From Bilabrum cf. latius (Eukaryota): a stretch of 64,000 nt of DNA. Below, in pieces: positions 7,425 to 62,073 of this stretch. The position numbers were made by a program, and so were the translations under genes. Every line of letters starts with the position of its first letter. Position 1 is the first letter of the stretch. The notes under the pieces were generated by a model. That model was given only the letters and a program-made list of their open reading frames with translations, had not been told where the DNA came from and did no database searches. Location: contig OZ237759.1 of the NCBI GenBank assembly GCA_965178125.1, positions 1 through 64,000 of the forward strand. The letters are read 5' to 3'.

Positions 7425-7642
7425 AATTTTTTTCTGGGCTGGGGTCCGCCCCCCCACGACTGGGGGATCGACCTAACATCATGGGTCCCGGGTCTGAGAC
7501 CGAGTGCGCGGGGTCGTGGCCTTCTTTTTCTTTGCCCTCGAGCTTGCCCTGGAGACTCCCTGGGTCTCATGTCCGTGTTCGCTGCCGCATCCAAGCGCCT
7601 GTTCGTGGCCTTACCCGTGTTCCCCCAGCACCGCAGAGTACT

Positions 7643-22361: not shown

Positions 22362-22935
22362 GACCAGACTGCGGACAGAGATGCCACAAGGATATATAAT
22401 ATACTTGGGATGTGATTAGTATGATGGTACGATGCGTTGTTCCCTGGTGGCGCACTCGTCACGGCGGTGCCGCGCATCAGGTTCCGCAACCTGATCCGGG
22501 CCACCACAAATGTTGTCGCAGCACACCTGCCGCAAGCAAAGTGAGCATTGGGCGCGCAGCCTATATATCGCCGCGCAATTGTTTGCAGTATGTTATATTA
22601 TTTGATAATATGCGCGAGATTAGTTCCAACGAGTGCTTGCCGTCGCGCAATTGAGCCAAACGTCTGAACCACGTTGCAGCAAGCGCATTGCGCAAGGCAA
22701 TCCCCACGCATACCCCATCGATTTGACTCACGTTTGCTTTAGGGTTGTATGCACAATATGCTATAGTAGCTATATGCCAAGTATGCGCCTCTGCAATTGA
22801 ATACAAGGAGCGCAATATGAGTGTTTCTGATTTCGCGCTGCTCGTTGGGTGAACGGGTAGGTTTCGGCGTGACAAGTGCAAGTTGCGTGCACTTTTGATG
22901 CGAATCTGTATTTTTTTTTCGGTTTCGCGTGGGTT

Positions 22936-28337: not shown

Positions 28338-29023
28338 CCCTAACCCTAACCCTAACCCTAACCCTAACCCTAACCCTAACCCTAACCCTAACCCTAACCC
28401 TAACCCTAACCCTAACCCTAACCCTAACCCTAACCCTAACCCTAACCCTAACCCTAACCCTAACCCTAACCCTAACCCTAACCCTAACCCTAACCCTAAC
28501 CCTAACCCTAACCCTAACCCTAACCCTAACCCTAACCCTAACCCTAACCCTAACCCTAACCCTAACCCTAACCCTAACCCTAACCCTAACCCTAACCCTA
28601 ACCCTAACCCTAACCCTAACCCTAACCCTAACCCTAACCCTAACCCTAACCCTAACCCTAACCCTAACCCTAACCCTAACCCTAACCCTAACCCTAACCC
28701 TAACCCTAACCCTAACCCTAACCCTAACCCTAACCCTAACCCTAACCCTAACCCTAACCCTAACCCTAACCCTAACCCTAACCCTAACCCTAACCCTAAC
28801 CCTAACCCTAACCCTAACCCTAACCCTAACCCTAACCCTAACCCTAACCCTAACCCTAACCCTAACCCTAACCCTAACCCTAACCCTAACCCTAACCCTA
28901 ACCCTAACCCTAACCCTAACCCTAACCCTAACCCTAACCCTAACCCTAACCCTAACCCTAACCCTAACCCTAACCCTAACCCTAACCCTAACCCTAACCC
29001 TAACCCTAACCCCCCCCCCTAAA

Positions 29024-37138: not shown

Positions 37139-37312
37139 TGCGGATCCGGATGAGTTGGGCAGCACTGGGAAGAAGCCTCACCTGGATGGTCCGAAGCCAA
37201 GGGGATCATGTCATTCAATCCGTAACAGAAGTGGGACACATGGATCACTTCGGTTCATGGAGCTGTTCAAATTTTTTGCTTTGCTTCAGTCAAGGCAGCA
37301 GAATTTTCTGGC

Positions 37313-38991
37313 TCAGAAGTGGATCGGGCTCGAGTATGCCGCCATGGCTGCCTCCTTGAAGGCCTCGCTCAATGTCGGATGCGCATGGCACGTCCGCGCA
37401 ATGTCCTCGGCCGATGCACCGTACTCCATCCCCAGCACACCCTCGGCCACCATCTCGCCTGCATTGGGACCCACGATGTGCACACCCAGGATCCTATCCG
37501 TAGCCTTGTCGGTGAGGATCTTCACAAGCCCGTCGGTCTCAAGCACGGCGCGTGCCCTGCTGTTGGCCTGGAAGGGGAAGGTCCCGCTCCTGAACTCGAT
37601 GCCCTCCTCCTTGAGCTCCTCCTCGGTCTTGCCCACGCAAGCCACCTCGGGGTACGTGTAGATCACGTTAGGGATGGCGTCGTAATTCACGTGTCCGGCC
37701 AGCCCTGCGATGTTCTCCACTGCGGCGATGCCCTCCTCCTCCGCCTTGTGGGCCAGCATGGGCCCCTCCACTACGTCTCCGATGGCCCACACCCCCGGCA
37801 CGTTGGTGCGGAACTCGTGGTCGATCTCCACGCGGCCCATCTTATCCGTCTTAACGCCCACGTCCTCTAGCCCCAGGCCCTGGGTGAAGGGGCGGCGCCC
37901 CGTGGACACGAGTACGTGCGAGCACTCGAGTGTCTTGGCCTCCCCGCCCGCGCTGGGCTCCACCGTGAGGGTGACTCCGTTCTCGCCCACCTCCGAGGCA
38001 GTCACCTTGGTCTTGAGGTTGAACTTCATTCCCTGCTTCTTAAGGATCTGCTGGAACTTCTTGCCCAGTTCCCCGTCCAGAGAGGGGACGATCCGGTCCA
38101 GAAACTCAACCACGGTCACCTTGGCTCCCAATCGGCGCCACACGGAGCCCATCTCGAGCCCGATCACGCCGCCGCCCACCACCACCAGATGCTCGGGCAC
38201 CTCTGACAGCTCAAGGGCACCCGTGCTGTCCACGATGCGGCCTGCCTCGTTGTCCACGGGCACTGGGGGAAGCGGGGTCACCTCGGATCCAGTGGCCAGC
38301 AGCACGTTCTTGGTCGAGAGGGTCTGCGAGCCCCCGTCGGTCAGGGCCACTTCCACGGAGTTGGCGCCTGCTAGCTTGCCGAATCCCTTCACATAGTCCA
38401 CCTTGTTCTTCTTGCAGAGGAACTCGATACCAGAGGTGAGCCCCTCCACGGTCTTGAGCTTGGAGGCCATCATAGCGTCCAGGTCCACGCTCACGTCGTT
38501 CACGATCACGCCGTGGTCTTTGAAACCATGCGTGGCGTGCTCGTACAAGTGGCTCGAGTGCAGCAGGGCCTTAGAAGGAATGCACCCGACATTCAAGCAA
38601 GTTCCACCGAGTCTGCCGCGCGACTCGACCACTGCAGTCTTGAGCCCAAGCTGTCCTGCCTTGATAGCGGCCACGTACCCGCCTGGGCCCCCACCTACCA
38701 CCACAACGTCGTACTGACCTGCAACACAATGATATGAGAAATAGCTGATCTGGCATGTGGGTTCGAAACAGCAAGTACGTAGCTCTCGATCCCAGTGTAT
38801 ACGCCGCATCTTCCCCGGTGGTTGCATTGATGCTGTGAGCTTGGAGCACGCAATGCAGCGCAAATAACACGCAATTCTCAACAAGCGCAATGATGAAGAA
38901 GCCACTTACCGTCAGAAGCAGCTGCGGCAGCAGACATGGCTCTCGTCGAACTAGAGATGCGCATGCCGCGGGCGATCGCCGATACCTGCAT
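37313..38991 (-). CDS. DLD: Mitochondrial dihydrolipoamide dehydrogenase (E3), about 495 aa, one intron (38719-38909)
   Basis: GGGPGGY, GGTCLNVGCIPSK, GGGVIGLE and HAHPTLSE motifs. A GTAAGT...TTGCAG intron joins a presequence-like exon (MQVSAIARGMRISSSTRAMS). TGA stop; no in-frame TAG. Confidence 0.96.
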
Positions 38992-39398: not shown

Positions 39399-40024
39399 AT
39401 GGCTGCATCATCTGGTGTAGCAGCGGGTGGGGCTATTGATGATGCCTTCGAGGATGATTTCGACGTGGACGGTGCTGGTGTGAAAGTTGAACCAACGTAC
39501 AAAACCAAGCCGGACGAGGACAAGCAGTGAGACAATACTCATTTTTGCTTCAGCTTATGCAATTCAGTCCCGACAATCTTGTCCTCCTCGGCTTGTTTCT
39601 CGGCCATCTGCAGGTTCATGCCATCGGTAGCTCGAGAGATTTGTAAGGAGGTAGTATCCAAGGTTCTGGACGGAAAGACTTGGCAAGGGGACGAAGAAAC
39701 AGTATGGACTAGAGAAATTACCCAAGAAATTAGGAGGAGAGTGAAGGGAGAGATGGACTTACCGCGTTACAAGGTGGTCGTCCAGGTAGCATTGGGGGAG
39801 GTCAGATCTCAGTCCGTAAGGGTTGCAAGCAGGTGCTTGTGGGATGCTGAGGTAGACAACTATTCATCATATTCTTGGCATAACGTGAGTGCTCCAAGTT
39901 TTCGCGGTTTGGCATAAGGTGAGGATTCAAAAGCACATCGCAACTCGTATCCCTGCCTTCCGGTCTAGTATCGCAGGATAGCTTGTGGTGTAGTGCGATG
40001 GTGTTTGCTTTGTACACTGAGTGA
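39399..40024 (+). CDS. Tctex-1 family dynein light chain (TCTEX1D2-like), two introns
   Basis: EPTYKTKP, PRYKVVVQVALGE, SRCLWDAEVDNY and VFALYTE* motifs. Introns are GTGAGA...CTGCAG and GTGAGT...TCGCAG. TGA stop. Confidence 0.9.
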
Positions 40025-40295: not shown

Positions 40296-42194
40296 TCACG
40301 TGCAAGCAGTGGCCCCCGCGCCGCGCAACACTGCCCACCCTGTCCCCATCGGAGGCACAGCGATCGACACGCTTCCATCTGGCCCCGGGGCCACGCTGGA
40401 AGGCACCCACGGGGGCAGCTCGTCGTTGGGGCCCAGCTGCAGTGGCTTGCCGTTCAGCTCTACCACGGGGCTGTACAGGTCCCCTCCCGACGGAGAGAGG
40501 GCGTACAGGTCCGCACTCGTCACATCAGCACCAGCCCTCACGGTCAGGCGGATCGTGTCCAGAGTGGAGGCAGAGGCCCAGAACACCACCACATCGCCCG
40601 GGCCCGCACTCATGACACCATCTCCGCCAGCAGCGGCGCAGTGCGCGTAGGCCCTGAAGGTGCCGTTCAGGGGACCTCCTTGGAGCTGCGCCCCTCCGTC
40701 AGTGGTGGTGGCATGCAGCACGTTTGGCCCCACTAGTCGGTTGTAACCGAATCCGACCCAGTAGTCGGGAAACGGCTCGAAATTGCTCGTGTTGAGGAGC
40801 TCGTAGTGTCCCCCCACCAGCGTCTGTCGGTTGAAACCCACGACTCCCACTTTGGCCAACACCCCCAGAGCATCCAGGTAGTAGATGGAGGATGCGTAAG
40901 TGTTCGTCACACCGTCGATGCCGCCCCCGTTGTGGGGCCCGCCCTCGCCCAGCACGACTGGCCGAGGGGAAGGCAGGCCGACGGCGGTGTCGATCTCTTG
41001 GACCCACCCGACCAAGTCCACGGCCTGTTGTAGCGTGTTGTTTAGGAGCATGGGCCAGGTGGGTGGGTCGTTGTAGGAGTGAAACACTACGACGTCGATG
41101 GTTCCATCTCTGGCGGTGCGGTTCAGCGCAGGGAACCAGAAGTACGGCGCGTGGTCGAACGAGGGCTGCCCCGGGCACGGTCCGTAAGAGCCGGGCACGC
41201 CGGTCCGATCAGATTTAAACGCCTGATCACGCACCTGCTTGAAGACGTCAAATGACTCCATGTAGCTCTCAAAGTCGCTGTCGTAGCTGCGTGGGTCAAT
41301 CTCTTCACCAAGCTCGATCCCGTTCAAGACGCTAGCCTGCGTAGCGTTCTTGCCCACGTGCTCAAGAAAAGCCTGCGGGTTCGTCTTGTTCCACACCAGC
41401 TTTGTGCCGGATACCACAGGGTACGAGAGGCCCCACGTCAGGCTGGAGCCGGTGTATCGCATGAAATCGACAAACTCGGCCCAGCGCGTCATGTTGAGAC
41501 AGAGACCGTTCCCTCCCTGCTCTCCGCATTGAGCAGGTGTCATATCCCCTACCAAGTACTTCACAGACTTGTCCAGCCCGCCACCGACACGAATGGTGCC
41601 GGGGCGAAGCGCCCTTGTCAGCTTGCGCAGGCGGGCATCTTGGAGGTCGATGTTCAGCAGGCCAGCGTTGCCCCAGCCGCCAGACGCCCCTCCACCCGGC
41701 GGCCACCAGTCCAATGTAACTCCCATATACGTCGGTGGCAGCGTTCGGACTGGATCCGCGTCAGTTTTGATGTTCATCGCGACAGGAACGCTAGTTGGCA
41801 GAGGCGAAGGAGACGGACTGGGGGGCGGGGAATGGCCGCATCCCCCGCTCACTCGATTGGGTTCGCAATGATCAGGGTCATGCTACTAGTTGTCCTTGAG
41901 CCAGCAATTGTATGGGTCATCTGTCTCGATAGAAGCTGGAGGCGCCCATGTCCATGCGACGCAGCCTTGCGCACCTTTGCAATGGGTGCAGCAGTTCTCT
42001 GGAGTGTCCACGTTTGCGAGCTTTCCAAACTGATGTCCAGTGCCAATACACGTTGCTTTTTTCATGGCAGTGCAGGAGCAATCGCGGGTGGTGGGCGGGA
42101 ACGATTGGGATCCAAGCGCTGACGTCGCCTGTTGCACGCAATTCATGGCTGCAAGCGACACAAAGCAAGAAAACGTGGCCGAAGCTACTTTCAT
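40296..42194 (-). CDS. Secreted PAN/Apple-domain + GH79 (heparanase-like) glycoside hydrolase, 632 aa
   Basis: Signal-like N-terminus; Apple-type CCxxC..CVAWTW..CWLK..VSG spanning tandem TAG TAG (41883-41888); GH79 motifs TLDWWP, IRVGG, LGEGG, YYLDALG, RQTLVGGHY and PFPDYW. TGA stop. Confidence 0.85.
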
Positions 42195-42614: not shown

Positions 42615-45213
42615 TCACAGGAGCACTGCCTCCCGGTTGGCAAGCACGACATCCTTGGTCAGCATAGTTAGGTCGTTCCGGGTCAGGCTGCGGCTGCGTT
42701 GCAGCTCATCTAACCACTTGCACGGGTATTCCTTACTCAGCGTCACAGTACCGTCGGCCACCACGTACGTCGACAAATCCTCCGGCCTATCAGCCGGGGT
42801 AGCCGGCGAGCCAGGGGCTGCAGCATGGGATCCAGAGGAAGCAGCTCCTGCTCCTGCTCCAGGTCTCGAGCCCTAAGACGTGCCCCCCGCCCCGGCCCGC
42901 CGCGCCGCAGCTCTGTCCCTGGTCCTCTGCACGGCCCTGGCCACCTCTCCCTCCAAGTGGTCCGCCCTCGACTCGAGCATCACTCGGGCCACTTGAGGGG
43001 CAGGCCGGCGGGTCGAGCACACGGGGCACCTGATCTTGCTCCACAGATTCATCGCGGTGCACTCGCACACGTAGTGCGTGGGAGCACCCTTCTTGCGAAG
43101 GGCCTTGCGGATCTTCTGAGCCTGCGCATGCTGTGGCTTCCACCGGGATGGGACCTCGGTGTCTTTGAACGACTTGGCCTTGCGACGGGCTGCGCGCCCC
43201 CCGCTGGCTGGGCCCGCCAAGGCCGCAGCCACGGCTGCCTCCTCCGCCGCCAGTGCCTCCTCTGCCCTGAGTCGGGCTTTCACATCGCACTAGGCGCCTC
43301 TTTCCAGCTCTTGCTGCAGCGTCTGGCGATGGACACCGGCCGATTTAGCTGACAATCCGGCATTTCTGGGCAGCGGGCCTCCTCGGGGAAGCACCAACTG
43401 GAAGGGGGCGGCCACCGGCGTCAGGCTGCGGCCCACAAAGTCGTACAGCGCCGCAAGGGTCAGGCGAGGGGAGGATCGGACCGTGACGAGGTCAGGCTGA
43501 GACTCGCTGCTCAGTGGGGTGCGCATGAGCTGAATCCTGAACCGGAGCGCCTGCTCTCCCACGGCACCGGCAGCCCCCTCCATTGCCCGCACCTCCTCCT
43601 CGGACTCTCCCGGCATGAGGGCAAACACGCCCTCTCGCCTCATGCGAGCCGCCACCTGCGCCCGCCTTGCCCTCTCCTCCCTGATTGCCTGCGCCGCCTC
43701 CTCCACTTGCTTGCGCATGGTCTCGGCCCCCTCGTCTTCAAAGGAGTACTCGCGCTGCAGACGAGGGGCCTCCATGCCGGGCGGAGGGCCCGCCCCCGCG
43801 CCTGAAGCAGGGCCATCAGCAGGTGGGGCGCCGGCGCCCGCATCGGCGACTGTTGGTGCTCCGGCTGCCGTGGCATCGGCACCTCCCGAGGCGGCCCCCC
43901 CCCACTGGGCACGGGCCACTCTCTTCCTCGCCTTCCTGTCGCGCGCCCGCTGGGCACTGGCGGCTGCCACGGCCTTCACGTCGTCCTGGGCGGGCAGCAC
44001 GTCAAGAGAGATCGTGCTCTCCCAGTCCCCTTGCCATGCAGACGCAGCAGGTGCTCGCGGCTTGAGCCCCGTGACGTAGAAGCTGAGGTCTCTGCCGTTC
44101 TCTTGCAGCTCGACCACCGAGCCGAGAGCCACGCACGAGTATTTTGTCATTTCGTACTCGAGGAATTGCTTCGGATCAGGCAAGTTGCCGAAATCCTTCG
44201 TGAATGGGAGCACTTGCACGTGCTCCAGCCTAGGCAAAGCCACAGGGCGGACGTACACCTCTGTCAGCTCGCCCGCAGCGGCAGCCCGCATGAGCCAGTT
44301 GGGCAGTACGAGCAAGTCGTCTCCGTCGGGGCCTGGCAGCTTGTGCGTCCCACCGATGCCGCAGTACGTTCGAATTCCGTGAGGGCTCTTGATTTCGAAC
44401 GTCATTGCTGCTCCTGATATGGAATCTTCCAGCACGCGCATGACAGAAGGAGGTATGAGCACTTTATCCCCGCGCTCGAAGCCGGGCGGAATGCCGATGT
44501 CGTCCCCCAACGTGCACTCGCCAACGAATGCGGCGGACGCGATGTAGAACGGCTTATGGAATCTATCTTTTGCTGCCGTGCCGACTTGGAGCGGCGCGGC
44601 ACTCTTTCGCGCCAAGTACCTCGCTCGACATGCATGGAAAGCTAGATCGGGGTAGGGTGTGCACGTGCCAATCTTCACCCTTGCTCCCTGCTGTACTAGG
44701 CTTTCCCTAGCCCATGTAAGAATCATGTCCATGGTGAAGAGCTTGGGATTCCAGCCTTCGCTGAAAATTGGTGGCAAGCAAATAGCGCCTCCAGCCACTC
44801 CGCCAGTGAAACGGACTAGAAGCGGAGACCGGAGCATAACAAGCGGTGGCTAGCTGGGGTAATCGCTGGGAAACAGCACCTCTAAATGCATGCATCCGTC
44901 ACCAGCTCCTTCTTTTCCCGCAGTCTGGTCCTTGTGCTGCAAAAGGTCGTCTTGCAACTGCGTGCGATTGGATGGTGTGAGGTTTCGAGGGTGGGAATAA
45001 CGCTAGGCGCGATATAGATCGTTAATCTCGGCGAATATATCACACCTGTTTGCCATTCGGGGTATTGTTGTCAAAATTTCTGATTGTCACGCGCCACAGC
45101 CTTGGATTGGTACCGCTTGGATCAACTGCGATAGTGCTGCTTGATTGCTCCCTTCGCACGCGATCGAGCTACGATGCTATGGCAGCAGCAGTGGCAGGTA
45201 GTATTGAAGCCAT
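42615..45213 (-). CDS. UBE2Q-like E2 domain + UFD1-like + UBX-like + RanBP2-type zinc finger protein, about 836 aa, intron 44958-45045
   Basis: E2: LEVLFPSDYPS*PP...GGAIC...GW. UFD1: GDKVLIPPS, LPNWLM, PKQFLE..MTKYSC. UBX: TLAALYDFV. ZnF: YVCECTAMN-x6-CPVC. Fragments are joined across TAGs; TGA stop at 42615. Confidence 0.75.
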
Positions 45214-45418: not shown

Positions 45419-48400
45419 TCACTGCCCCGTGCCAGTGGTCTCCTAGCACGCTGCACGGCCCCTCGCATCAGCCGCTGCCAGTGCGTCTACGCCCCTGTTG
45501 GAGAGGCCCTGCACCCGGGCAATGCGGGCTCGTACCTCGGCTTGGTACACTGACAACTGAAGTGGCTGTGACGTACCCGCCCCTTTGCGCTCCCTGGCTT
45601 TCCTAAAGGCGGGGGCCTCCATGCGTGCTGCCAGTCCCCGCAAGCGCTGTCGAGGGACTTCCTCGGTGGGCCCCCGCGACGACGATGCACCGCTGGCAGC
45701 GCGCGTGCCTCGCCAGTTGGACTCAAGACTGACCAGCATCTGCTGCACTGCACGCAGCCTCAGCTACTTCACCTGGCTTTCTGACAGCGGGTGGGACTGA
45801 GTGGCCTGTGCAGTATTCTCTCCACCACGGACCTCAGCTGCTACTGGTGGTTGTCCAGCCTGCGGTACCGTCCGTCTCCTCTTCTGCATGCGCTCTCTGA
45901 GGCTAGCTACAGCCTCATCTCCGGTCAGCTCGCCACTACGTCTTTGCGAGCGCCTCCGCGCAGGCCCGATACCCCCACCCTCCCCACTCTCACCTTCTTC
46001 CCCATCCTCGCTAGATCCGCCCTCACCTGCGCTGCTCACGTCCTCGAGATCATCCACAGCTCCCGTGTTGAGCTGCAGGTGCCCAGGCAGCCGGGTCGAT
46101 GAGCCCCTCTCTCGCTTGCGACCTATCGATGACCCGCCAGCTCTGCTGCCCTGCACACGCTCCACACCTGAGGAGCGCTGCATCAGGGCCTCCCTGCCAG
46201 TCTTGAAGCCGAGCCCAGGACCGCTCCGTGGACCCCTTGGGACGCACTCAGGAAGCACATCAGGTCGTCCTAGGATGCCACTAGCTAGCAAGGGAACCTT
46301 CGAAGACATGGCCGCAAGGATGGAAGAGTTCGTGCTGGTGATGATACTGCTGGTACCGATGCTGGTGCCTCTGACCTAGCGCGCGGCCTGCTGGTGCATG
46401 GTGCCGCACTAGGCGCACCTACCTGCTGCACACACGTCGCACGGCTGCCCCGAGGCGCACAGACACGGGACACGGTGATCGCCGACTGATGCTCCGCCCC
46501 CCTTGGCCGTTTTGGGCGCCGGGGATTCCTTGAGAATCTACAACTCTTCTGCATGAAACTGCAGCTGATGCGCTGCGGTATCCACCGCGGCGCGGACGCG
46601 GCGCTCATGTGTGGCTAGGGCAGCTTGGAAGGCCAGTGGACAAGACGACCCCAGACCCAGCGCGTCCAGTGCGGCCTGTCCTCGTCTCGATGCGCGCATA
46701 CTGCTTGCCGCTGCAGCCGTCTCCCCGGCTGCACTAACGGCACGTCGAGACGGCACGGTGTCAAGGCTAGAACCGTCATCCTCGCCAAAGTGACGGAGCA
46801 GTATGCCTCTGCGACACGTTGCTAGTTCACTGGTGCTCGGGCAGCAGTACCGCCGCACGTCGGCTAGGCTGCGGGCCTCTCGAATGAGCCTTGCGGCAGC
46901 GGCGATATCCCTGTCGTCGAGCGGGAACCTGGTCGCAATCCCACCGGCCGCACTACTGGCACTGCTCGGGGCAGGTGCATGCCGTGCAAAGTGCTCCAGG
47001 AACGTCTTGCGCGACAAGAAGGCGTACTTGTCGATGCAGTCAAGGTCCAGCATCACTGCGCCTACTGCTGGCAATTTGTCGCGGCCTGCCCTGCCACACT
47101 CTTGGTACAGCCCCTCGATAGATTTGGGTGGATTCCAGTGCACGACTGCCCTGACGTCGGGCGCGTCAATTCCCATGCCGAACGCAAGCGTGGCCACCAC
47201 CACAGCGCCAGCTTGGGAGGTCCACCACCGCTGGGCAGAGCCCCTATCCGACGCAGATAGGCCTGCGTGATAAGGCCTAGCGCTCATACCAGCACCCCGC
47301 AGCGCGGCTGCAACCTCCTCGCAGGTACTTCTCTTGAAGCAGTACACAATGCACCGACCAGACGATGTGGCTCCACCGGGCCCGAGCATGCCCTTAGGCT
47401 TGCTGCCCGTCTTGCTGGTGTTTTTGCTGGCACGACTGCCAGCATTCCCCCGAGCCACCTTGATTCTTCGAAAGGATGATTCATCGCCCGCACTACCCGG
47501 TGCATATGCCTGTCCCACCTCAGCGGCCAGAGCCAGGGCACCCCGAAGCACTGCGCAAACGAGGCGCAGCTTGACTTGCTGCGGGGACTCTTGCTCGGAG
47601 CCCGACATGGGACCGCCTGCGAAGGGGTTCCACGGGGCTGACCCACGGCCAAACCCGGGCGACCTGCGCCTCGGCACCTGGGCGCAGCACAGGGCCAGCT
47701 CGGGGCGGTTCACGCTGAGCCTCCACACGACGCCGTTGTGCACGTAGGCAACTCCGCACGAGACAGACCGCCGGGGCCGCACTCTCTTGCTCGCAAGCTA
47801 TTGGCCAGCACTGGAGGTAGCATGCTCAGGAGGTCGCAGGTGCAGCACCGAGCATATGTCGCTTGCAACACGCGCAGTTGCCGTGGCTGTAAGCGCTAGG
47901 AATGGCACGCGAGGAATGCACCCGCGCAACCGCCCAAGGCCCCGAAACGCCGGTCGGAAGTCATGACCCCAGGATGACACGCAGTGTGCCTCATCAACGA
48001 CAACACAAGCTAGGTTATTCTTTGAAGCACACGATCGAGCTGCTTCTCGGACCTCAGTCCCCTGCAAAGTTTCAGGGGTCGTGAACACAAGCCACCCCTG
48101 CCGATCCGATTTCGAATCAGAGTGCTTTGTTATATCCCCGTCTTCAAGATCTTTGAGAATCCTGGCTCTATCACCAGGACATGTCGTTGATGTAAGGGAC
48201 TCAGCTCGAAGGCCTCGCAGTTTTGAAGTGCGGACCTGATCCTGAATCAAGGCAAGCAGGGGCGACACAACCAGCACAGCTTTTCCGGAGTGCTGGGCCA
48301 CAACCTAATATATTAAAGACTTGCCGGCGCCAGTGGGCAGAATGCCGCAGACATCTTGGCCAGCAAGTACTTCACCAGCAATTTCTTCCTGTAGGGGGCG

Positions 48401-48442
48401 AAACGCAGCGATCTGCAACAACCTGAGCGAGCTCGACAGCAT
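45419..48442 (-). CDS. RecQ-family DNA helicase, about 1000 aa (start uncertain)
   Basis: FRPLQ, PTGAGKSLIY*, SPLLALIQDQ, DEAHCVSSWGHDFRP, LTATA, ATLAFGMGID, QECGRAGRD and CRR..CDVC motifs in one frame across 7 TAGs. TGA stop. Confidence 0.92.
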
Positions 48443-48605
48443 CAGTATTTATTCTGCCATGTGTTCCTGCAAGTATTGCCACAAGTTCTGCTGCGAGGTT
48501 CGTTGTGGTGAGGAGCAGGTGCTTTCTTGCATTCATCTTTGAATTGGTGCCTCATCGCATAGTTTCCGTTCGCGGCACACTTCTCGCCCGAGGCTGCTGC
48601 AGATC

Positions 48606-51131
48606 ATGGCTGCTGCAATCGATTACGCTGCTGGGAACTCAGTAACGAATGGAGGCTATGGTGGGGGTTCAACTGACCCGGGCCCAGGGGTGTTTATCGG
48701 GAACACTCCGACAGGCACTGAAATGCGGTGGGCCTCTGTCGAGCGCCAGGACGCCGAGCTCCGATCTACGGTAGGTGCGCTGCACGCCAAAGATGTAAAT
48801 GCAGTCGAGTTCACGCCACTTGCGGCGGCAGCAACTCGCATCAGTGACGTGCTTGCAGAGCGATACCCGTTCACTCCAGCGATGGATTTTGCCTCGTTCG
48901 ACCCGAGGATTGACCCAACCCAAAGCAGCGTCGCGTTCGGGAGACGCGCTTGGACCAAGCTTGTGGGTGTGTTGACAGAGGCTTCTTCGTCCACAGAGGA
49001 TCGCAGGCAGTCGCTGGTAGCGTTGCTGAACCGCGTGGCCCGACCGGAATCTCGCAGCAGCATGGTTCGAGCAGGCGCCGTGGAAGCCCTGGCAAGCTTG
49101 CTGACGAATGATAGTGATCCTGCGCTCCAGCTAGTTGCATCGATGGCAGCCCATATTCTAGGCCGTCTGTGTGACAGCTGGGAGGGACGCAGAGCCCTTG
49201 AACGGGAGCCATCCGCCGTGGATAAGCTGGTGCGATGTCTGGGCAGCGACGAGCCGTCTCTTGCGGTGCGTCGATCAGCTGCCGGTGCTCTGGCTAGACT
49301 TGCAGGTACTGATGACGGCTGGGAAGTGATCGTGTGCGGACAGCAGGGCGCAGACCTCCCAGGGGAGAGCACCGCAGCCGCTGCTTCCACCGAGCAAGCC
49401 AGCGATGCAGCACTCCCGGTGAGTGCTGCTCGCGGCGAGAGCGGGTGCGGCCCGCCCAGCGTGCTCCAGCGCATAGTGGATGCCTGTGCCGAGGGCCACT
49501 GTCCCGAGGCGGTCGTTTGCCTGGCCGGGATCGGGGCCCGGCATGAAGAGGGAGCCGCCATGCTGCTGCGGGCGGGGGGCATGCGCATGGCGCTGCAGGC
49601 CATCCAGGCGGCGAAAGCAGAGTCTCAGGGGGCAGATCCAGAGGCGGGATGCGGACCCTTCGTGGCGGCTGGGCCAGGGGCTCCCGTGGGCGCCGGTCCG
49701 ACGATCTCCAGCTAGCCCAAATCCGAGATCCTCGCTCTGGCGGCTCTGAGCTGCATTCGGAGCATGGCCCAGGTGTGGGTGGGCAAGCTGGCCGCTGTGG
49801 GTCACGCGGCAGGGAGTCGTGATGCAGGTGTAGAGGACAGCACTGCCGCAGCCAATGCCGTCGCCCAATGCCTCGCGGCACACCAGGCGGATGCGGTGCG
49901 GCGGGCCGCGGCCGGCGTGATGCTGCTGCTGCTCGTCTCCACCGAAGGCAAGCTGGCTTGGTGGGGATCCAAGGCCTGCAGGGACAGCATCGTGGCTGCT
50001 CTGGGCGACGAGGATGCGCGCGTGCGACGGGATGCAGACCTGAGCCTGGTGCAGCTGTGGCAGCTCCCGATTGCGCGCAGGCCTCTGGCCCGCATGGTGC
50101 TGCTGGCTCCGTTTGTAGGACTGGTGGATAGGCAGATTCGAGAAGCCTCCATGGTTGTGGAGAAGCCAATGAGCGGTGGGGAGGACAAGGGCCCAGCCGG
50201 CCACACGTGGGGGGACGGGGTGGATGCTGCGGATGCTTCCCTGCGGGCCCATCGGTGCAGCGAGGAGGCCAGTCGGGTGCTAGTCAGGGCTGTGGGCCTC
50301 GGGGCCGCGAGGGATCTCGTGGCTCTGGTCGCGGCGGGGCTGGGCCCGACTGCAGGTGAGGAGGTCGTGGGGGAGGGTGGGGGCTCAGGTCCGGCGGGGG
50401 AATCTGGGGAGTTGGGGTCAGGGCTCGATGGGAAGGGGGAGGGAGAGGGACACCAGGCCAAGGTAATCCGCAAGGCCGCAGCTCGCGCCCTTGCCCTGCT
50501 TGCCTCGGGCCATTTCGGGGCAGGTGCAGTGTCCAAAGGGGCTGCAGGAGCGAGTGCAGATGAAGACAAAGGCGGGGCAGCGGCTGTTGACCGCGAGGCG
50601 GTGAGCAGCAGGCTGGCGAGCCGGGGCCGGGAAGGTGCTCTGGCTGTAGCTGGCACCCTGCGCCCGCACGCGCGCCTGCTTGGTGCTCTGGCCGAGGCGG
50701 GGCGGGCCGGCGACGGCTCCCTCTGCGCCGACCTGGCCATCAGCCTGTGCGCAGTGCTGCGAGAGTCAGCCGTGCTGCGGGCGCACTCCCGTAAGGTGCT
50801 CGCTGGCGAGGAGCAGCTGGGGGAGCGAGTGCAGGGAGCAGGAGCAGGAGCAGGAGCCGGAGCAGGAGCAGGAGCAGGAGCAGGAGCGGGAGGGAGCGGC
50901 AGCACCAAGAGGAGGACTGCCAGGGATGCCGGCAAGAAAGGAGTGGCATAGTCTGCAGAATCTACCACCGCAGGCCGAGGCGCTGGCACCAGCGGTAGCG
51001 GCCGTGATGCTGGTAGCGCTCCGTCCACGGCGCTCAGCGAATCCATCGCGCGGGCGTGCTCCCTCGCGGATGAGGTGTCCCCTGCCCGTCCCGGTGAAGA
51101 GCTGGCGAGGCTACTTGGCTCCTTAACATGA
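48606..51131 (+). CDS. RSPH14: Armadillo-repeat radial spoke protein 14-like, 841 aa
   Basis: IDPTQSSVAFGRRAWTKL and VRRAAAGVMLLLLVSTEGK resemble RSPH14/RTDR1 blocks as I recall them. Two TAGs (49713, 50949) are read through; TGA stop. Confidence 0.65.
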
Positions 51132-52540: not shown

Positions 52541-53915
52541 TCACTGCAGTGAGCACGCCGTGATGGAGCCATCGACGCGAGCCACTAGCCCCACGGTGCC
52601 TGCAGGAGTGCTTCGGAATGAATGGCACGGCGTGCTTGATGCACTTGATGCCATGGTGCCCCCGCCACCGCCAGAAACGCTGGCTGCCCCTCCCTCCGCC
52701 CCCTCGATGCCACGCTCCTCGGGGCCACCAGCAGCCCGGAACACGTGGAGCGCATCTCTGCGCCGTGCATCCCATATGATAGCCTGCCCGTCCAGGCCAG
52801 CCGACAGCACCCTAACGCCGTCCCCCAATACCTGAACAGACGACACCGCATCCCGGTGCCCAGCCAGGGTGCACACAGTGGAACCGCAGCTCGATTGTTC
52901 CCTGTCAGCTGTCAATTTGCCCGCAATCACGCCACCCGCAGCAGGGGGGGCCCTGCCAGAAGCATCTACGAGCCGAAGCTCCCCGCTGGTGCCCCCGACC
53001 GCCAGCACCCGGCCATCGGGGGACCAGTGCACACAGCCGCTGGCGCACGCAGACGGAAGCACCCGGCCCCTCCACACCGTCGATCCACACTCACAATCAA
53101 TAATTCGCAAGTATCCGCCCGCATCCACGGCTGCCAATGAGCGCCCGCACGCGCTGGACTCCAGACCAGACACGGCAGGGAGGGTACTGGGTCCTGGCTC
53201 CACCAAAGAGGCGGACACAGCTTTTGCCCAGCTACGGTCGGCGTCTAGATCTCCAGTCGTGTGCACAGAGCACAAACTTATACCCCCTCTGGAGTAGCCA
53301 ACCATCAGTTTCGACGCTGAATCGCCTGCACGGCCGGCCAGAGGGGCAATGCAGACTGGGAATCCCAGCTTAGAGTCTGCGAGGCATGGTGCGGTCGGTG
53401 GCTCCGCTTCTCGTGAAAGTGGCACGTGCGTAGCACCTACGTCTCGGCACGCACGTTCGGGTGCCTCGTGCACCGCAGAGGCGGCATCTGGGGCTCCCAG
53501 TGCAGCTGCGCGCAACAGGTGCAGGCGACCATCCGTGTTTAAAGCACCAGCAAGAACGTCACTGCCCGGCACCGCCAAAGACTTGAGGGAAAGTACGCTT
53601 GAGCCTTCTAGCTAATATGAATTCCGATGCGATACGGCGACATGGGCTGGAAGAGGCTCCCCGCTAGATTCGCTACCTCGAACGTAGCCAAGCTCAAGCC
53701 ATTCTCCGCGGTCTGAACTAGCAACTGCGCTCGTTTCCGATACCCACACAGCATCTGAAAGAGGTGCTCGATGCAGGGAATGTACAGTTTCGATTTCGTT
53801 GTACTGCGGGCGCGGGAGGCCCAACCCTCAAACAAATGATTGTAGTGCTCCCGAAGTTCATAAGAAAAGCGCTATTCGTCGATGGTACCACCCTTCCAAC
53901 AGTGTATCTTACCAT
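52541..53915 (-). CDS. WD40-repeat protein, Ski8/WDR61-like; ATG-only first exon, intron 53804-53912
   Basis: WSPDGRVLAVG and TLAGHRDAVSSV...LSAGLDGQAIIWD motifs. ATG|GTAAGA...CCGCAG|TAC splice. One TAG at 53612; TGA stop. Confidence 0.7.
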
Positions 53916-54044: not shown

Positions 54045-57000
54045 ATGGAACCTTTGAGCATGCCTGACTGGCTTCTTGAAGAATCTAGGGAGTCCGCATC
54101 TCCAGCAGCGGCAAGTTCGGTCAGGATGCTTCGAGGAGAGCAGCCTGTCGGGAGCTTGATGGCTGCCACGGCGTCTCTGCATATCGTCGTTGCCAGGGCC
54201 CGCGAAGTCTTGGACCCAGCGAGTGGAAGTTCATCAGCCCCACTGAATCCTCGAGTTCGACTTTCCTTGGGGAATCCGGCAAGCCCGCACAGGGCATACC
54301 CTACGCTCGTTGGTCCGGCCGCAAAGGTTGCCAGTAGCAACCCAAACTGGGGCATTGTAGAAAGCGGAAGCATCTTATTGAATCCAACAGATATGTGAGG
54401 CAGTCATAGATCGCCATGCGCAACTCTGTTGCCCAGATCTCGAGAATCTAAACCCTTGCTTACCTAGATCCATCGAGTCTCCGCAGGGCAACCGGTTTCG
54501 TTGATGTTGACATCGTTGTAGATTCAATTGCGGATGCCAAGCATTCTAGTAAGGATGCTACCGAGTAGGGCGCTGGAGAGTCTCCATATCGGCGAGTAGC
54601 AGGGTTTCGATTACAGCTGTCAAACATGGGGTACGGCCTACTGGAAGATTGGATATAGCTATCGCCTTCTGGCAGCATGCTGGTGCTCATTCGAGTGGCA
54701 AGAATCATTGCTGTTGACGAAGGCGGCTGTCCCGTCGTATCCCTTGACTTGTCTACGCCAGTCACTGCTTCCGGAGCAGCAGACACTTCCAACTCCTCCG
54801 GCAAGAAACCAAGCCATTCTGCGGGCAGGCATGCGGATGTTGGAGCAATGCCGCGATTCAGTGCTAATGTGCCAAGTACCATGCATGCTGCTCCCCCAGG
54901 CGGATATGCGCCACCGCTAGGCGGAGCTCCACGAGGAGGCAGCGTGCCACCCTCCCCCCCGGGCCCATTTCCCATGCATGTGGGGGCAGGCATGCCCATG
55001 ATGTAGCCCGCGGGGGCAATGCCCCTTGGTGCGGCTGCAGGCGCGTCCACTGTGATGGTCCCAGTGGCCTACCCCGGCGGGGGCTACGTGATGACACCCA
55101 TGCTCATGCAGGGGTCTCCCCAGGTCATGCAGGGGGGAGGGCAGGTCCATGCGCCCGGCCAATACTACCAGCCGTGGTCTCCGAGCTAGGGAGGGGGCAG
55201 CCAACCGATGCCGATGCCAATACACTCGGCAGTGGCAATGCAGCAGCCCGCTGGCCCAACTTACGTGGTTGTGCAGGGCGCACAGCATCAGCAGCATCAG
55301 CAGCATCAGGTGCTACTGCAGCACCCTGTCGAGCCGCAGGGAGCCTAGGTTCAGCCCGCCAGAGCACAGGCTGCTAACACGCGGGGCGATGGTAGTGTCG
55401 GGAGAAACTCTGGAGGACCGTACGAAGAGGACCGCAGGGCAAGAAGAGAGCGCGTCATCAGCGCGGCGCAGTCTGGCCCGCTCCCGGACAGAGACTCCCC
55501 ATTGCAAGCCCGCGTCCGAAGCAGTGCTTCCGTTGGATACCTGGGGGCTCGCAGTCGCTTCCACAGCGCAGAGTCCGGAGTATCAGACGACGTGTCTCAC
55601 TCTGGCTCGGCGGGGTTCCCCGAGCACCCCAGAACATACGCCCCTTCGGTGGGGAGTGCAGGCCGGCTGGCAGGCGACTTGCATCAATCCAAGTCCTTCC
55701 AATCGTCCTCAGGAATGGAGGCGCAGGCTCCGCGCATCCGAGCCAGCCCTTCCGTGGAGCAGGACGGCGGCTGGCGGGCCTACCACCAACAGCAAGACGC
55801 TCGATCGGCAGGAGGCCTCACCCTGCCAGACCACGAGAGCGTCCTGTCCGCTGACTCGGGGTCGCACCACGGCTCTGGCGTGTTCCCTCTGCGCCAATAG
55901 CCACCTAGTCGGGGCGAGCCAGCGGTCTATCCCGGGCAGGGAGGCTCCCCTGGGCGCACGTCCACTCGGTCCAACGGGCACTTGGGTGGCGCGTCTGCCG
56001 CGTCTGGGTCGCCTCGGGGTGCTTCCAGGTTGGGGCCGCCGGGGAGCAGGGGAGCAGAAGGGAATGAATTCGGCCGCCAGCGAGGGATGAGAGCTGCTTC
56101 GGATACCCGTGCGATGATGAGCATCGCCACTCGCCGCAAGTCGGAGGGCCGGCAGGTGTGGGCGGGGCAGCAGGTCCAGCACCAAGCACCCGCGCCGCAA
56201 GATCCCGCTGGCACTGGCGCTGACAGTGCTGCCGATGAAATATACCCGTAGTCTGGCTCTAGCAAAGAGCGATAGGCTATGCCAGGGTCATTGCGTCACC
56301 TAAGGCAGCATGGGAGCAGCTCAAACCTGCGGCAGCAGTCTGGAAGCCGGCTGCGCCTGGACAGTGACGGCCGCAGCGTGAAGTCGATGGGCGTGCGGTT
56401 CGCATCTGACGGAGAGCACGGTGCAGATGCACTGGGGGGGAGCGATGCAGGCTCGGCATGGGGGCAGCACAGCATTGACGGCGGCCTTCCTTCGGCTGGT
56501 CGGGTGCATGGTGAATCGATGCCGGGTGGAGGGGCGGAGGGCAGGCCCAGCGCGCAGCAGGCGGTGCTGTCTGGGCTGGACGCGATCGAGGAGGCCGAGG
56601 CTCGGGAGGACTCAGACTATCTGCAGCAGCCGGGCGGACTGCACGGGTCGGTCATGGGTGCGGCCGGGCAGCCGGAGCTGTCTCTGTCGACCCCTCTGCA
56701 CGACGCGGAGGAGTCCTATCGCCTGGAGGCCATGGCCAACGGGTCCTCCAGGCGCAGGTCGCGCACCACCCCCGCTGCACCCGACTGGTTTACCGGTGCG
56801 CAGTCGCTGCTGGGGACTGCGGGAAGCTTTAGTGGGGGGCAGGTGGGGGCATCAGCGGGCATGGGCGCGCAGTCAAGTGGGGCCGCAAGGCCGCAGGCGC
56901 GTGAGAGCGTGGCCGGCGCTGAGACAAGGCAGGGGCAGGGGCCTGCCGCAGGGCCCTGGGGCTCCACCAACAGGCAACGCTCCTTGACAGGACTGTCTGC

Positions 57001-57154
57001 AATATCATCGATGCCTGGTAGCAGCCCCAGCCAGTTCAGCGTGGCCACAGCCCCGCAAACGGCTGGCGCCATCTTCTCATTCTCGGCCGCACTGGCAGCT
57101 GAGCAGGCAGGCTCCGTGGATCGATCGAGGCTCAGCTCTGATGCCGGATAGTGA
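54045..57154 (+). CDS. Protein with N-terminal C2-like domain and a long low-complexity tail, intron 54395-54486
   Basis: LHIVVARARE..NPRVRLSL..NPNW..DWI*LSPSG is C2-like. Four same-frame fragments are joined across TAGs; it ends TAG TGA. Confidence 0.65.
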
Positions 57155-57241: not shown

Positions 57242-58792
57242 TCACGTCAGCTTGGAAGGCTTTGAAGCTGTGCCCAAGGCAGTTCTCGACTCTTGCTCGT
57301 GCCTCGTGGCCGATAGTAGGGCGCCAAGGAATTCCTTCATTCCAATAGCACAGCTCGGGGGCGCCTTGTCTTGCCCGTCGTCCATTGAGGCAGCCCCTGC
57401 TCCTCCAGTAGCGGCCCCAGGCCCGCTCGCGCCAGCCCTCGCCCTGAGTGCCAGAGCCACCGACCTTGCCGAGCTTGCTGAAAGGTGGAATGCATGCGCC
57501 TGGAATGGTAGCTTCCTGAGAGACCTGCCGCTGAGTCCCTCTGCGTCCTGGGCGCACCTGTACAGAGCCGCGGTGGCTGGCCCCCCCGCGAGGGTCCATG
57601 ACGGCTTCGGAGGCGGGCCAGAGGATGCGCTGGACCCGCTGGCTGCGGGGTGCAGCGTGGAGCCAGGCGTCTTCACCGTGGCTGCTCCTGCTGGCGGCGC
57701 CACGGGCATACCTTCGGATGGGTTCACGATTCCTTTGCGCACGAGCTCCACGATGGAGGACAGCAGGATTCGGTACCTGGCGACCAGCACGGGAGGGCCA
57801 ACGTACTGCTTCAGGTCAGCTCGGTCCAGAAATGCGGGGTCAATGGCCTCCGTCAGATTGGACGTGGCCAGGACTAGGACGTTCGGCCTCGCCCTGAGCC
57901 GATCCACCTCGGTCAACAAGGCATTCACCACCCGAACGGCATCGCTGGGCTCGTTGCCGTTCATTGACGACTGACGCGCCGCGGTAAGGCTCTCTACCTC
58001 ATCGATCAGAACGCAGACAAGCGTGCTTCCATCCTCTGCATCCGCGAGGGCGTGGATACTCTCGAAGAGCTTGGCCACCAACTTGCCGCTCTCGCTGAAC
58101 CATCGCGAAAACAGGCTATGGCTGTTGATCTCCAACAGGCTTGCGGTAGGGTACGTCTTGTTCAGCCTGATGGCTAGCTTGTGCGCCAATGCCTTGCAAA
58201 TGGTTGTTTTCCCTGTGCCGGGGGGCCCGTGAAAGAGCAGCAAACGGTTCGTGGTTACCATAGCGCTGTCAACACCGTGCTCAGCAAACAGAATTGCAGT
58301 CTCTGCATAGCGGAGCAACCTTCCCTTGACATCGCTGTCATCAAAAACCAATGAATCCCACAGCGCATCGAACCCGAAATGCGGAAGAGCCCAGTGCTGA
58401 GCAGCAGTCACAACCTCGCCATCCCCTTCTTCGCCACCGCCGGCTTCTTCAAGGCTAGGAGGGTCCATCGACAAACAAAAAGGATAGACCTAGACAAGTG
58501 CCTAGAATCCCGGGACTCTTGATACTTCTTTAGCGTCGCCATCCAATATGCTCGCAACCTTCGTCGCCAGCATAGATGCTCGCATGGTCGAATCAAGGCC
58601 TTCCGTAGGGATCTCTGCGCCCACAGCAAGCATCGCAGTAGACGATTGGAGATATGAGACTATGTGCGACTCGATTTCTTCAAAAGAGTGCTCTCCATCG
58701 GGATCTACGGACACCTCAACTGCGAGGTGCAAGAGGGAGGTCGAACAAGCGCAATTCGAAATTTGAGAACATGGTGGCTTCGTTGATAGCAT
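57242..58792 (-). CDS. PCH2: Pachytene checkpoint AAA+ ATPase PCH2/TRIP13
   Basis: NRLLLFHGPPGTGKT, EINSHSLFSRWFSESGKLV, LIDEVESL, EPSDAVRVVNALLT and DPAFLDRAD motifs. The N-terminal domain (AVEV...) is joined in frame across two TAGs near 58490-58504. TGA stop. Confidence 0.93.
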
Positions 58793-58947
58793 CCTTGCAA
58801 GCAATATCAATTATTGTAATAGATCACACCTTCAACGATGTTCTTCTTCGATTCCATGGCTACACAGAAGCGATGTAAAGTTTCCGAGCGAGAGCAAGAA
58901 GCAAGTTCTCGAGTTCAAGTGGTTCCGCATCATGCGCGGCGCCTACT

Positions 58948-61900
58948 TCAAGGCTGGACTTCCGAAGCCCCTGCAACAGGTTTGCTTGGCTTTGACGTCG
59001 CCGGCGCACCGTCGTCGGAATCCTGGCGAATCGGAATGCACGTAACCTTGAAAACTGATCCGACGTCAGCAGCGGCCAGGCTGCGCGTAGCTCCATCCAG
59101 TCGATCGCTGGCAGAGGAACCGGTGTCCTTCCAGCCAGGCGTGCCCTCTCTCGAAGCTTCTGTGGTGCGCTCTCCATCCGCAGACACCCGGACCCATTCG
59201 AACCGAGAGCTGCTGGAGGGCCTGCCCCCGTGGTACCACACCCTGGCGCGCAGCTGCTCGCCCTCCACAGGCCTCCCCTCAATCCACACGGACCGCGCGC
59301 GGGGAATGCCGGGCTCGACCGCCGCACCAGAGGGGGGCACCACCTCGATGGCGGACCCCTCGCACGACCTGACGGCCTCCTCCAGGGCCGCCAGCGAGAC
59401 GGGCCCACGCGCCCTGCATGCCCGCTCCAGGGCTCGGCAGGCCCCCGGCGCGCTGCTCCTCACCAGGCACACTGCCATGACCCGCCGGCCGCAGTACGAG
59501 CCCACCAGCGGAAGCCGCAGCGGGGAGCGGGCGGCGGCAAGGCCCTGCGCGACGTCGAGGGCAGTAGCCCCGGCTGGAGTCTGGAAGGGGTGCAGGTTGG
59601 TCCCGGCGCCTGGTGCCCCGCTCCCTGGCTGCGGGTGAAACACGTGCATGTAGGTCTCCACGCTGGCTCCTTCCCGAGCGCGGGCCAGGGCAAGGAGTCT
59701 CTGGGCAGCATGACCCACAGCATCGGAGGGCACTGCCGGGCATACTCGGTGGGGTACCCCCAGAGCATCCATCAGGCCGGAGGGATCGACGGGTGGGCGG
59801 CACACACGGCGGAACACAGCCTCGCCCTCTTTGTCAGGCAGCGGGTCGGTTCCGGACCCAGACGAAGGATCAAAGGCCTGTGTTTTGGCTTCATCGGCGT
59901 GGTTGATACTGCAAAGCAGGCGATCTGGGAGTACCTCGGCTGGCATTTCCTTTTCCTTGCCCTTAGCATTGCTGTGCATCCGCGCGAGGCTCTTGGCCTT
60001 GCGGAGGCCCTTACCCTTGGACTTCTTGCGCTTGAGATCGCGAGATGGAGGAGCCGTGGGAGGAGGCCGAGGCGGCAGGCGGGATCCCGAAACCGAGGCC
60101 TTGACAGCAGCAGCTGCTGTGCCTGAAGTGTCAGACGACTTGACAGCAGGCGCTGAGGTAGCCTGTTGGTCTCTATAAGACGACGGTACTGCAGCACCTT
60201 CCGTCCCTGCACCCGGCGAAGCCCCCCCCTCTTCGTCAGCGCCCTCAGCAGCACCTACCTCTGCATCGCTGGGCAGACCCTCTCCTGCAGTCCCACCGCC
60301 ACCCTTGCTGTGCAACCCATCCTGCCCTAGCTTCACCTCTCTCTTGTCGTCGACCTACTCCTCCTCCTCCTCTTCCTACTCTTTCTTATCCTCTACATAC
60401 CATCCCACCTCCAGCAGTGTTCTCTTGGACCCTGGCACCTGGATCACCCAGCCACTTGGCACCAGCGGCTGGGCTACATCTTGGACAGCCACCCCAGGGT
60501 CAGTTGCAGCTGCGTCATCACTAGCGAGCAATTTGGACGCGGCATCTTCTCGTTCCTCCACGGCTGAGTAGACCCGCTGTATGGCTTCCGGTGGGGACAG
60601 GACCCCGTCACTAGGCCCAGCACCAGAGCCAGCACCAGCACCAGCTTCCCCCGAACTGCGCTGCAGGGGCACGAGCTGCAGCGAGTTGCCCTCTCGTAAC
60701 CTACCCACAGCCGAGCACACTCGCCGCCTGCGCTCGCAGAAGAGTGTGTGGTGGTGCGGTGCGACAACCATGGCGACCGAGCCGCTGGAGGAGGCGCGTG
60801 CCGCTGGGTCCGAGCTGGGCACCCAGGAGGTGGAGTTGGCTGCGTCTGTGATGGCACCAGATGCGTGGGCAACGACCGCAGATCCAGCAGTTCCAGCAGA
60901 TCCAGCAGCAGCATCAGCTGCGGCAGTAGAGCCCCCCGCGTCCTGCGATGCTGTGGTGGACCCTGGGCCACCTGCAAATGGTGCTGGGGCAAGTGCCGAT
61001 GGTGCCGCGCCAGCCTAGCCCAAGAGAGAACTAGTTCTTGCTGCATCTGGCACTGCTGCTTCCATTTCCAGCATAATCTGCAGCTGTGGCCTGGCCTCGC
61101 CAACGGGCCCCGGGCTCGGCAAAGGAGGAGCCCCAGCAGAGGCACCCACTGTGGGGTGCGGCACTGCCACTGCCACTGCAGGGGGGAGAGTAGTCCCACT
61201 GGCTGTCCTTGACGCAGAGCCAGCACTTACCGATCCATTCGCTTCCATGCTCGGCACGATGGCGCACCAGGCAAGGACCCCAGCGCCCCCGCCCCTGGTC
61301 GCACTTCCCCGGACCGAGACCAGCAACACGTCGTGGCGGCGCACCTCGATGGTCTAGCGATGGGACCACTCCCAGCGCATGCCAGGGACAGCCTCAGAGC
61401 CCCTGGCGTGCAACTCAGGTGTGCATTCGCTGCAAATCCAGTCTCCTGAAGCGCGACCGCGAAGGAGCTTCTATACCACCGCAGCCTGCGATTCGCCGGT
61501 GCCACGAACTGCAGTGCCAGCGGATGATGGGCTATCTGGGCTGACAAGATGCCGAGACTCCAAGCTGGCAAACTTGGATGCCCGCTCCTCCGGCGTTCCT
61601 CTCGGCGAGAATCGCCAAACGGATGCGGCTGCGACGCAGCTCCCCGTCGGAGAGATACCCCGGACTGACGAAGTCAACAGGTCCCTCCCGTAGCCAGCTA
61701 GGGCTACCAGATTAAGTAAGAACTTAGTAGCGGGTCCAGTCTCCGCCAAAGAGCTTGGCCCCGTTGTCAGCGGACCAGGCTTGGTGCGGTCGTTGCTCGT
61801 GGTTGATGCATCACCAGGGCCCTTAGATTGAGGCTGTGAAGCTGAGGTATCAGCGCTAGATTTAGACTGCGAACTCTACGAGTTTGATTGCCCCCCTAAC

Positions 61901-61953
61901 ACGTTTCCGCCACCACTTCCATGCCCAATGCAATTTCCTATTGCTAATGGCAT
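58948..61953 (-). CDS. About 1000-aa protein with a C-terminal AIR9-type (A9, Ig-like) repeat
   Basis: VWIEGRPVEGEQLRA..YHGG..SRFEWVR..ADVGSVFKVTCIPIR resembles the A9 repeat. Single frame across several TAGs; TGA stop. Confidence 0.65.
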
Positions 61954-62073
61954 GCAGCCACACAGCTAGAAATGGGAGGCAGCAACCAGGATCATTTGGC
62001 CGGAGAACGCCTATGGAAATAGACAAGCAACACCTTAGTGCGGCCCTGCTGTGAAAGGCAGCGAACTACAACA

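Follow-up and report, generated by a model that had tools for sequence, protein, structure and literature searches.

Do UAG and UAA carry the same meaning in the nuclear genome from which this DNA comes? The question is raised by the window analyzed here, the whole 64-kb stretch of contig OZ237759.1, in which long open reading frames (ORFs), several of them recognized by Pfam, surface when TAG is translated as a residue. The answer that we consider probable is that nuclear UAG is read as glutamine and UAA is not, i.e., that the two codons are decoupled in the manner of NCBI table 15. What underlies this reading is a TAG at a glutamine position, the absence of in-frame TAA and the finding that all terminators seen are TGA, in a sample that consists of one subtelomeric 64-kb window.

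The first 37 kb of the window are subtelomeric: the telomere hexamer ACCCTA, which reads TTAGGG on the opposite strand, recurs in numerous arrays among satellites of 155, 22 and 55 bp. The (ACCCTA)n arrays alternate with the 155-bp satellite, a pattern that in positions 1-4500 repeats about every 853 bp, and an 8.9-kb segmental duplication (4516-13448 versus 20116-29012) shows 99.2% identity. Three ORFs of this part have a gene-like codon score, the score having been trained on the window genes with these three ORFs outside the training set. The largest of them, of 2346 codons, has no Pfam hit; a public 12.8-kb contig (P0249-P0252) carries a copy of it with 94-100% identity, and the ORF may be a member of a chromosome-end gene family. 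The ORF at 4011-6815 is a truncated copy that repeats its first ~750 residues.

Unique genes are found from 37.3 kb onward, at about 61% GC and with a GC3 of 67%, and their core set comprises 11 gene models between 37.3 and 64 kb (Table 1). The introns are short and of the GT..AG type; five of them are bridged by intron-less contigs of runs X5, X6 and X8, always on the strand of the gene, and these joints shifted several start codons upstream. The single DLD intron and both Tctex introns are predictions based only on splice signals and homology; the three-exon Tctex-1 model was drawn by eye and then confirmed by Pfam. The AIR9-domain gene is spanned by one unspliced contig (58875-62066). The UBC/UFD1 gene is an unusual fusion that combines a UBC-like fold with the N1/N2 subdomains of UFD1 and a long C-terminal region, with full-length homologs (P0255, P0256) of ~900 residues and 35% identity. 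The start codons of the divergent RecQ and ARM-repeat genes are only ~160 bp apart (48443-48605). The 1.4-kb segment 51132-52540, which separates the ARM gene from the convergent WD40 gene, contains neither a protein-like frame, despite contig cover (X5, X6, X7), nor a small gene terminated by TAA, and it may represent a non-coding RNA or 3' UTRs that are long and overlap. No tRNA gene, Rfam match or rRNA was found anywhere in the 64-kb window, and the gene for eRF1 lies outside it.

Table 1. Positions of the genes, ORFs, introns and satellite arrays in the 64-kb window
Feature	Position	Strand	Remarks
Subtelomeric ORF, truncated copy	4011-6815	-	gene-like codon score; TGA end
Subtelomeric ORF	7427..9178	+	583 codons; gene-like codon score; duplicate 23027-24778; 4 TAG; 0 TAA; TGA end
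22-bp arrays	9445-11016, 13945-15158, 25045-26572		
Subtelomeric ORF	15375..22415	-	2346 codons; gene-like codon score; 11 TAG; 0 TAA; TGA end
55-bp array	34403-37145		
Dihydrolipoamide dehydrogenase (DLD)	37313..38991	-	exons 38991-38910, 38718-37313; predicted GTAAGT...CAG intron; 0 TAG; TGA end
Tctex-1 family dynein light chain	39399..40024	+	exons 39399-39526, 39614-39884, 39977-40024; 0 TAG; TGA end
PAN + GH79 (heparanase-like) gene	40296..42194	-	632 codons; 2 adjacent TAG; TGA end
UBC-like + UFD1-like fusion gene	42615..45213	-	intron 44958-45045, contig-bridged; 4 TAG; TGA end
RecQ5-like helicase CDS	45419..48442	-	1007 codons; start ATG 48442-48440; 7 in-frame TAG; TGA end
ARM/HEAT-repeat gene, divergent from RecQ	48606..51131	+	2 TAG; TGA end
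WD40 gene	52541..53915	-	intron 53804-53912 right after ATG, contig-bridged; 1 TAG; TGA end
1005-codon gene without Pfam hit	54045..57154	+	intron 54395-54486, contigs of two runs; 9 TAG; TGA end
TRIP13/Pch2 AAA+ ATPase	57242..58857	-	intron 58720-58829, contig-bridged; 2 TAG; TGA end
AIR9 A9-domain gene	58948..61995	-	1015 codons; 7 TAG; TGA end
466-codon gene without Pfam hit (unk467)	62212..63702	+	intron 62289-62378, bridged in three runs; 4 TAG; TGA end
Contig-bridged introns, all five	44958-45045, 53804-53912, 54395-54486, 58720-58829, 62289-62378		

TAA in reading frames and at gene ends

The 11 gene models contain 38 in-frame TAG in 7,367 codons, spread over nine genes, along with 57 CAA, 183 CAG and no in-frame TGA; the dozens of in-frame TAG codons and the regular use of CAA reported in a preliminary description of this DNA are accordingly confirmed. 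Counted as a glutamine codon, TAG accounts for 38 of 278 (14%). The same models include not a single in-frame TAA, and the subtelomeric ORFs 15375-22415 and 7427-9178, which add 2,911 codons with 15 TAG, bring the count to 0 TAA in 10,278 codons. In these models and ORFs of the window, UAA is not used as a sense codon.

Could this absence simply reflect base composition? Such was one proposal of the preliminary description, namely that high GC merely suppresses a TAA that encodes glutamine. This explanation is disfavored by the comparable NAA/NAG pairs, which keep 23-26% of A-ending codons (CAA 23.4%, GAA 25.8% and AAA 23.7%). Under the assumption that TAA:TAG follows CAA:CAG, 11.8 TAA are expected in the 11 models versus 0 observed (Poisson P(0)=7.2e-6), and 16.8 versus 0 when the subtelomeric ORFs are included (P=4.9e-8). 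Expressed as shares, TAA makes up 0 of the 38 TAR codons (binomial P 3e-5) or 0 of 53 (4.5e-7), with a 95% upper bound of 7.6% on its share (5.5% with the subtelomeric ORFs). The expectation requires no equilibrium: a C-to-T change turns CAA and CAG alike into new TAR codons, whose TAA:TAG ratio should therefore match CAA:CAG whatever the age of the code.

Nor is the trinucleotide rare as such in this DNA. Out of frame, the coding sequences of the 11 models contain 16 and 29 TAA, 45 in total; in a 10-model set, there are 15 and 27 TAA in CDS frames 1 and 2, 46 antisense to the CDS, 13 in introns (both strands) and 60 outside the CDS. Given that TAA is plentiful out of frame, its avoidance is specific to the reading frame, as is that of TGA.

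Because TAA had been treated as a stop when the ORFs were first drawn, circularity was checked by walking upstream in frame from every start to the nearest preceding TGA. Seven of 13 ORFs initially seemed to be preceded by TAA, an appearance caused by introns that, once joined by contigs, moved the starts upstream: the preceding TAA turned out to be intronic for DLD (where it is part of the GTAAGT donor), unk900 and TRIP13, and to lie in the 5' leader for AIR9. The one gene in which an in-frame TAA within transcript reach has an in-frame ATG ahead of it is RecQ.

At the gene ends the picture is equally uniform. TGA terminates all 11 genes and the three coding-like subtelomeric ORFs, 14 of 14 within the window, and DLD, GH79 and Tctex terminate at the C-terminal ends of their families (for GH79, at the end of homology to heparanase). 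The statement of the preliminary description that there is neither an in-frame TAA nor a TAA terminator thus stands, at 0 of 7,367 codons and 0 of 11 gene ends. There are 412 ORFs of at least 80 codons in the window, 75 of which end in TAA, and none of these 75 has a gene-like score, with the exception of telomere-repeat frames and of one Tctex exon, in which the TAA is intronic; the in-frame codons downstream of the TGA terminators of the 11 genes show no enrichment of TAA. The local TAA:TGA ratio is 0.149 out of frame and 0.286 outside the CDS, and under such neutral ratios the lack of TAA among 11-14 terminators has a P of 0.17 to 0.009, so that TAA as a normally used stop is mildly disfavored.

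The alternative that survives these results best is the ciliate-type code (NCBI table 6), under which UAA and UAG both encode glutamine, UGA is the only stop, and TAA is rare because of GC pressure or a weak tRNA-Gln(UUA). This code predicts that all 14 terminators are TGA, as is indeed the case, and coordinated change of UAA and UAG is far more common, with at least 13 independent cases counted in the available part of PMC5304391. The same code, however, has to accommodate 0 in-frame TAA against 38-53 TAG (P 7e-6 to 5e-8), and we regard it as rather improbable.

In the decoupled code that we prefer, a tRNA-Gln with anticodon CUA would pair only with UAG, and the release factor would no longer act on UAG, with UGA as the working terminator. 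There are two ways in which UAA could then be kept out of the frames. UAA may still terminate and rarely be chosen in a GC-rich genome, a possibility that we hold tentatively, at somewhat short of an even chance. Otherwise, UAA might be decoded efficiently by nothing and hence be effectively unassigned, with UGA as the sole terminator and UAG as a full glutamine codon, a version that we consider conceivable, if on the unlikely side. The preliminary description had itself proposed that TAG and TAA may be decoupled, with TAA being either a rarely used stop or nearly unused, and the frequent sense TAG together with the TAA-free frames and gene ends support that proposal.

The TAA upstream of the RecQ gene

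A single TAA in the window calls for separate discussion. The reverse complement of 48440-48460 reads ATG GCA GAA TAA ATA CTG ATG, where the TAA (48451..48449, -) immediately precedes the RecQ ORF (45419-48448), shares its frame and lies two codons before the start of the model. In the same frame, a TGA is followed immediately by an ATG at 48532 and, after 24 codons, by the ATG at 48460 that opens the above sequence, the ATG at 48442 being the one that closes it. The preliminary description had named this TAA (48449-48451) as the only candidate for an in-frame TAA, and the upstream walk agrees, as it finds within transcript reach no other in-frame ATG followed by an in-frame TAA.

Which of the three ATGs begins the protein? 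The ATG at 48458..48460 (-) lies in the context ACAC ATG G, so that its -3 base is A and its +4 base is G; for the ATG at 48442, the bases at these two positions are both C. The start-context scores of the three candidates (-2.3, -1.1 and -0.8) are non-discriminating. With the downstream start (48442), presumably only 4 residues would precede helicase motif 0. The closest relative in a search of proteins for RecQ homologs, at 47% identity, is too distant for a comparison of the N-terminus. The listed contig pieces leave 48100-48597 uncovered.

A hint comes from the word TGCAGG, which is located 12 nt before the upstream RecQ ATG (48460). TGCAGA is the start of the contigs of the ARM and unk467 genes, 8 and 46 nt ahead of the respective ATGs (the ARM contig at 48598), and TGCAGA/TGCAGG could be an initiator-like element; by this likeness in sequence, the RecQ mRNA may include the ATG at 48460. 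The TAA would then be either the stop of a three-codon upstream ORF (uORF) encoding MAE or sense codon 4 of a longer RecQ. A six-codon uORF is found in the unk467 leader (ATG AAG GTT GTG CTG CGA TGA; 62190-62215, +), where the TGA overlaps the main ATG (ATGA). SSSLRLL(R/Q)IA, a peptide that DLD and RecQ seem to share at their 5' ends, was dismissed as a chance similarity: the nucleotides differ and the stretch is intronic in DLD.

For the ciliate-type code, the better context of the ATG GCA GAA TAA start compared to the downstream ATG is a point in favor, but even when this TAA is counted as a sense codon, the probability of no more than one TAA, P(<=1), is still 9e-5 (9e-7 with the subtelomeric ORFs).

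The amino acid inserted at UAG

If UAG is a sense codon, which amino acid does it specify? The one strongly constrained column is codon 46 of RecQ (TAG at 48305..48307, -), in helicase motif I (GKSLxYQ), where 118 of 120 homologs have Q, one has S and one has E; this codon is also aligned with the Q of motif I in human RECQ5. An in-frame UAG at a conserved glutamine column is thus found at RecQ codon 46, and the remaining TAG columns are variable. On the strength of this column in the alignment, TAG most likely stands for glutamine.

The variable columns leave some room for another residue, i.e., for TAG as a codon for Glu, Leu, Lys or Tyr. H, E and E are found in more distant homologs opposite the TAG at codon 92 and K opposite that at codon 612, and L, S and R stand opposite the TAG at codon 751, where the Leu comes from a relative with 95% identity; two TAG of the AIR9-like gene are located inside a poly-Glu run; and nuclear codes with UAG=Leu and with UAG=Glu are known from the available portions of PMC5304391, PMC11687900 and PMC10553269. 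The TAG columns of TRIP13 are uninformative on the amino acid, as this stretch is not conserved with the solved structures. However, the motif I column of RecQ contains Q in 118 of the 120 homologs, E in only one and L in none; the Leu at 751 lies in a low-complexity spot where 3 of the 5 neighboring residues differ; and Q is commonly exchanged for E, K, H, R or S. Furthermore, in-frame stops in the sequences of relatives lie opposite CAG glutamine codons of the window in two of three cases: the DLD of one relative (P0014/P0126, 90% identity) breaks off immediately ahead of the conserved Q in FPFQANSRA, a residue encoded in the window as Q411 (CAG), and the UBC-UFD1 fragments of two relatives end, in ungapped register, opposite Q543 (CAG) and K151 (AAG). 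Taken against these observations, an amino acid other than glutamine appears very unlikely.

Public protein calls of relatives (P0014/P0126, P0253 and P0260), which show 90% identity in DLD and 63-75% in UBC-UFD1, break at in-frame stops at points where the window has sense codons. It seems, to judge from such sequences, that a small clade has the recoding in common and that database entries annotate it wrongly. The 1005-codon gene of the window ends in TAG TGA (57149-57154, +), such that the reassigned TAG is the last sense codon; under the standard code, this end would resemble a tandem stop.

That the TAGs are not translated at all, the code being standard and the interruptions being due to pseudogenes, assembly errors, RNA editing or low-level readthrough, is barely credible even for a subtelomeric region, where decaying genes are common, given that TAG is the sole interruption in frames as long as 2,346 codons, that 9 of 11 genes, conserved ones included, are affected, that TAG is the final codon of no gene, the ambiguous TAG-TGA aside, that intron-less contigs carry identical TAGs (29 of the 38 are inside the contig pieces listed for X5, X6 and X8, with no differing letter in those pieces, which argues against editing and assembly error) and that the protein calls of a second assembly break at identical positions (in the public copy of the 2346-codon ORF, 4 of 4 called fragments stop exactly at TAG positions of the window).

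Known codes, placement of the organism and implications

How does the code that we favor compare with those already described? The preliminary description considered UAG=Gln with UAA=stop to be very rare and gave Iotanema spirale as the reported case. That precedent is sound, as the available part of PMC5304391 assigns this code to I. spirale (Fornicata), but the list was incomplete, because the ciliates Hartmannula sinica and Trochilia petrani share the same code according to the part of PMC11687900 at hand. These organisms of the table 15 type resemble the window in that UAG is a widely used glutamine codon (14% in the window, 18.5-31.8% in the ciliates; PMC11687900, available part) and in that UAA is not used for glutamine. 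They differ in their terminators: in the UAG-only codes described in the accessible parts of PMC5304391 and PMC11687900, UAA is the primary or preferred stop (91.9% in H. sinica), whereas in the window TAA ends 0 of 14 frames and TGA ends all of them. They also differ in composition from the GC-rich genome represented by the window (about 61% GC) and in lineage, the window being placed among the stramenopiles by a single-gene tree.

The code of ciliates, dasycladaceans and hexamitids (table 6) matches the window in UAG=Gln and in TGA-only gene ends, but the window differs in having no in-frame TAA where 12-17 are expected. UAG was also reassigned alone in the rhizarian exLh (PMC5304391) and in phyllopharyngean MAGs from TARA (PMC11687900), where, in the parts of these sources that were available, UAA is a stop; there, however, the amino acid is Leu, in contrast to the Q of the RecQ column. 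In Oligohymenophorea sp. PL0344, UAA and UAG encode different amino acids (PMC10553269, available part), so that the fates of the two codons differ as they do in the window, but both are sense codons there, whereas UAA is not seen as sense here.

The best named relatives of the DLD are stramenopiles. In the tree of this one gene, the window sequence and its 90% identical relative P0014 group with support of 100/100 and are sister (93/97) to a clade that includes Cafeteria roenbergensis; the organism would accordingly belong beside Cafeteria, in the stramenopiles near Bicosoecida, as far as a one-gene tree can place it. In the available part of PMC6972860, the nuclear genome of Cafeteria is described as having about 70% GC and 1.7-1.9 introns per gene, these organisms are hosts of giant viruses, and the only non-standard code mentioned is the mitochondrial one. 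The literature search found no nuclear code variant for stramenopiles or bicosoecids, only mitochondrial cases; given that subscription journals were mostly outside its coverage, this absence is unproven. Screening metagenomes with DLD gave 80 loci, of which the best has 73% identity and none is on the P0014/P0126 contig; exact-pattern scans of the genome_contigs collection gave 0 matches and a scan of viral_contigs gave 0 relatives. The window most likely records a reassignment of UAG to glutamine without UAA, in a lineage for which the literature searched holds no recorded case.

One practical consequence is that gene calling with the standard code truncates the proteins of this organism, and public entries of the organism and its relatives end at these codons. 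In evolutionary terms, reports of separate fates for UAG and UAA are confined to a few lineages, namely a single fornicate, a single rhizarian and some ciliates, which show that the translation apparatus can distinguish UAG from UAA. A further case, in a GC-rich stramenopile and apparently independent, would widen the taxonomic spread of this phenomenon, with UGA, not UAA, doing all the terminating that is seen. Such a genome would provide a contrasting composition for testing ideas on the origin of these codes, namely the loss of UAG stops under GC pressure, capture of UAG by a tRNA-Gln(CUA) and changes in eRF1. If the reading in which UAA is unassigned is true, stramenopiles would have their first nuclear code change, and the organism would represent a living intermediate between the standard and the ciliate-type codes, in which UAG was captured first and UAA is disappearing.
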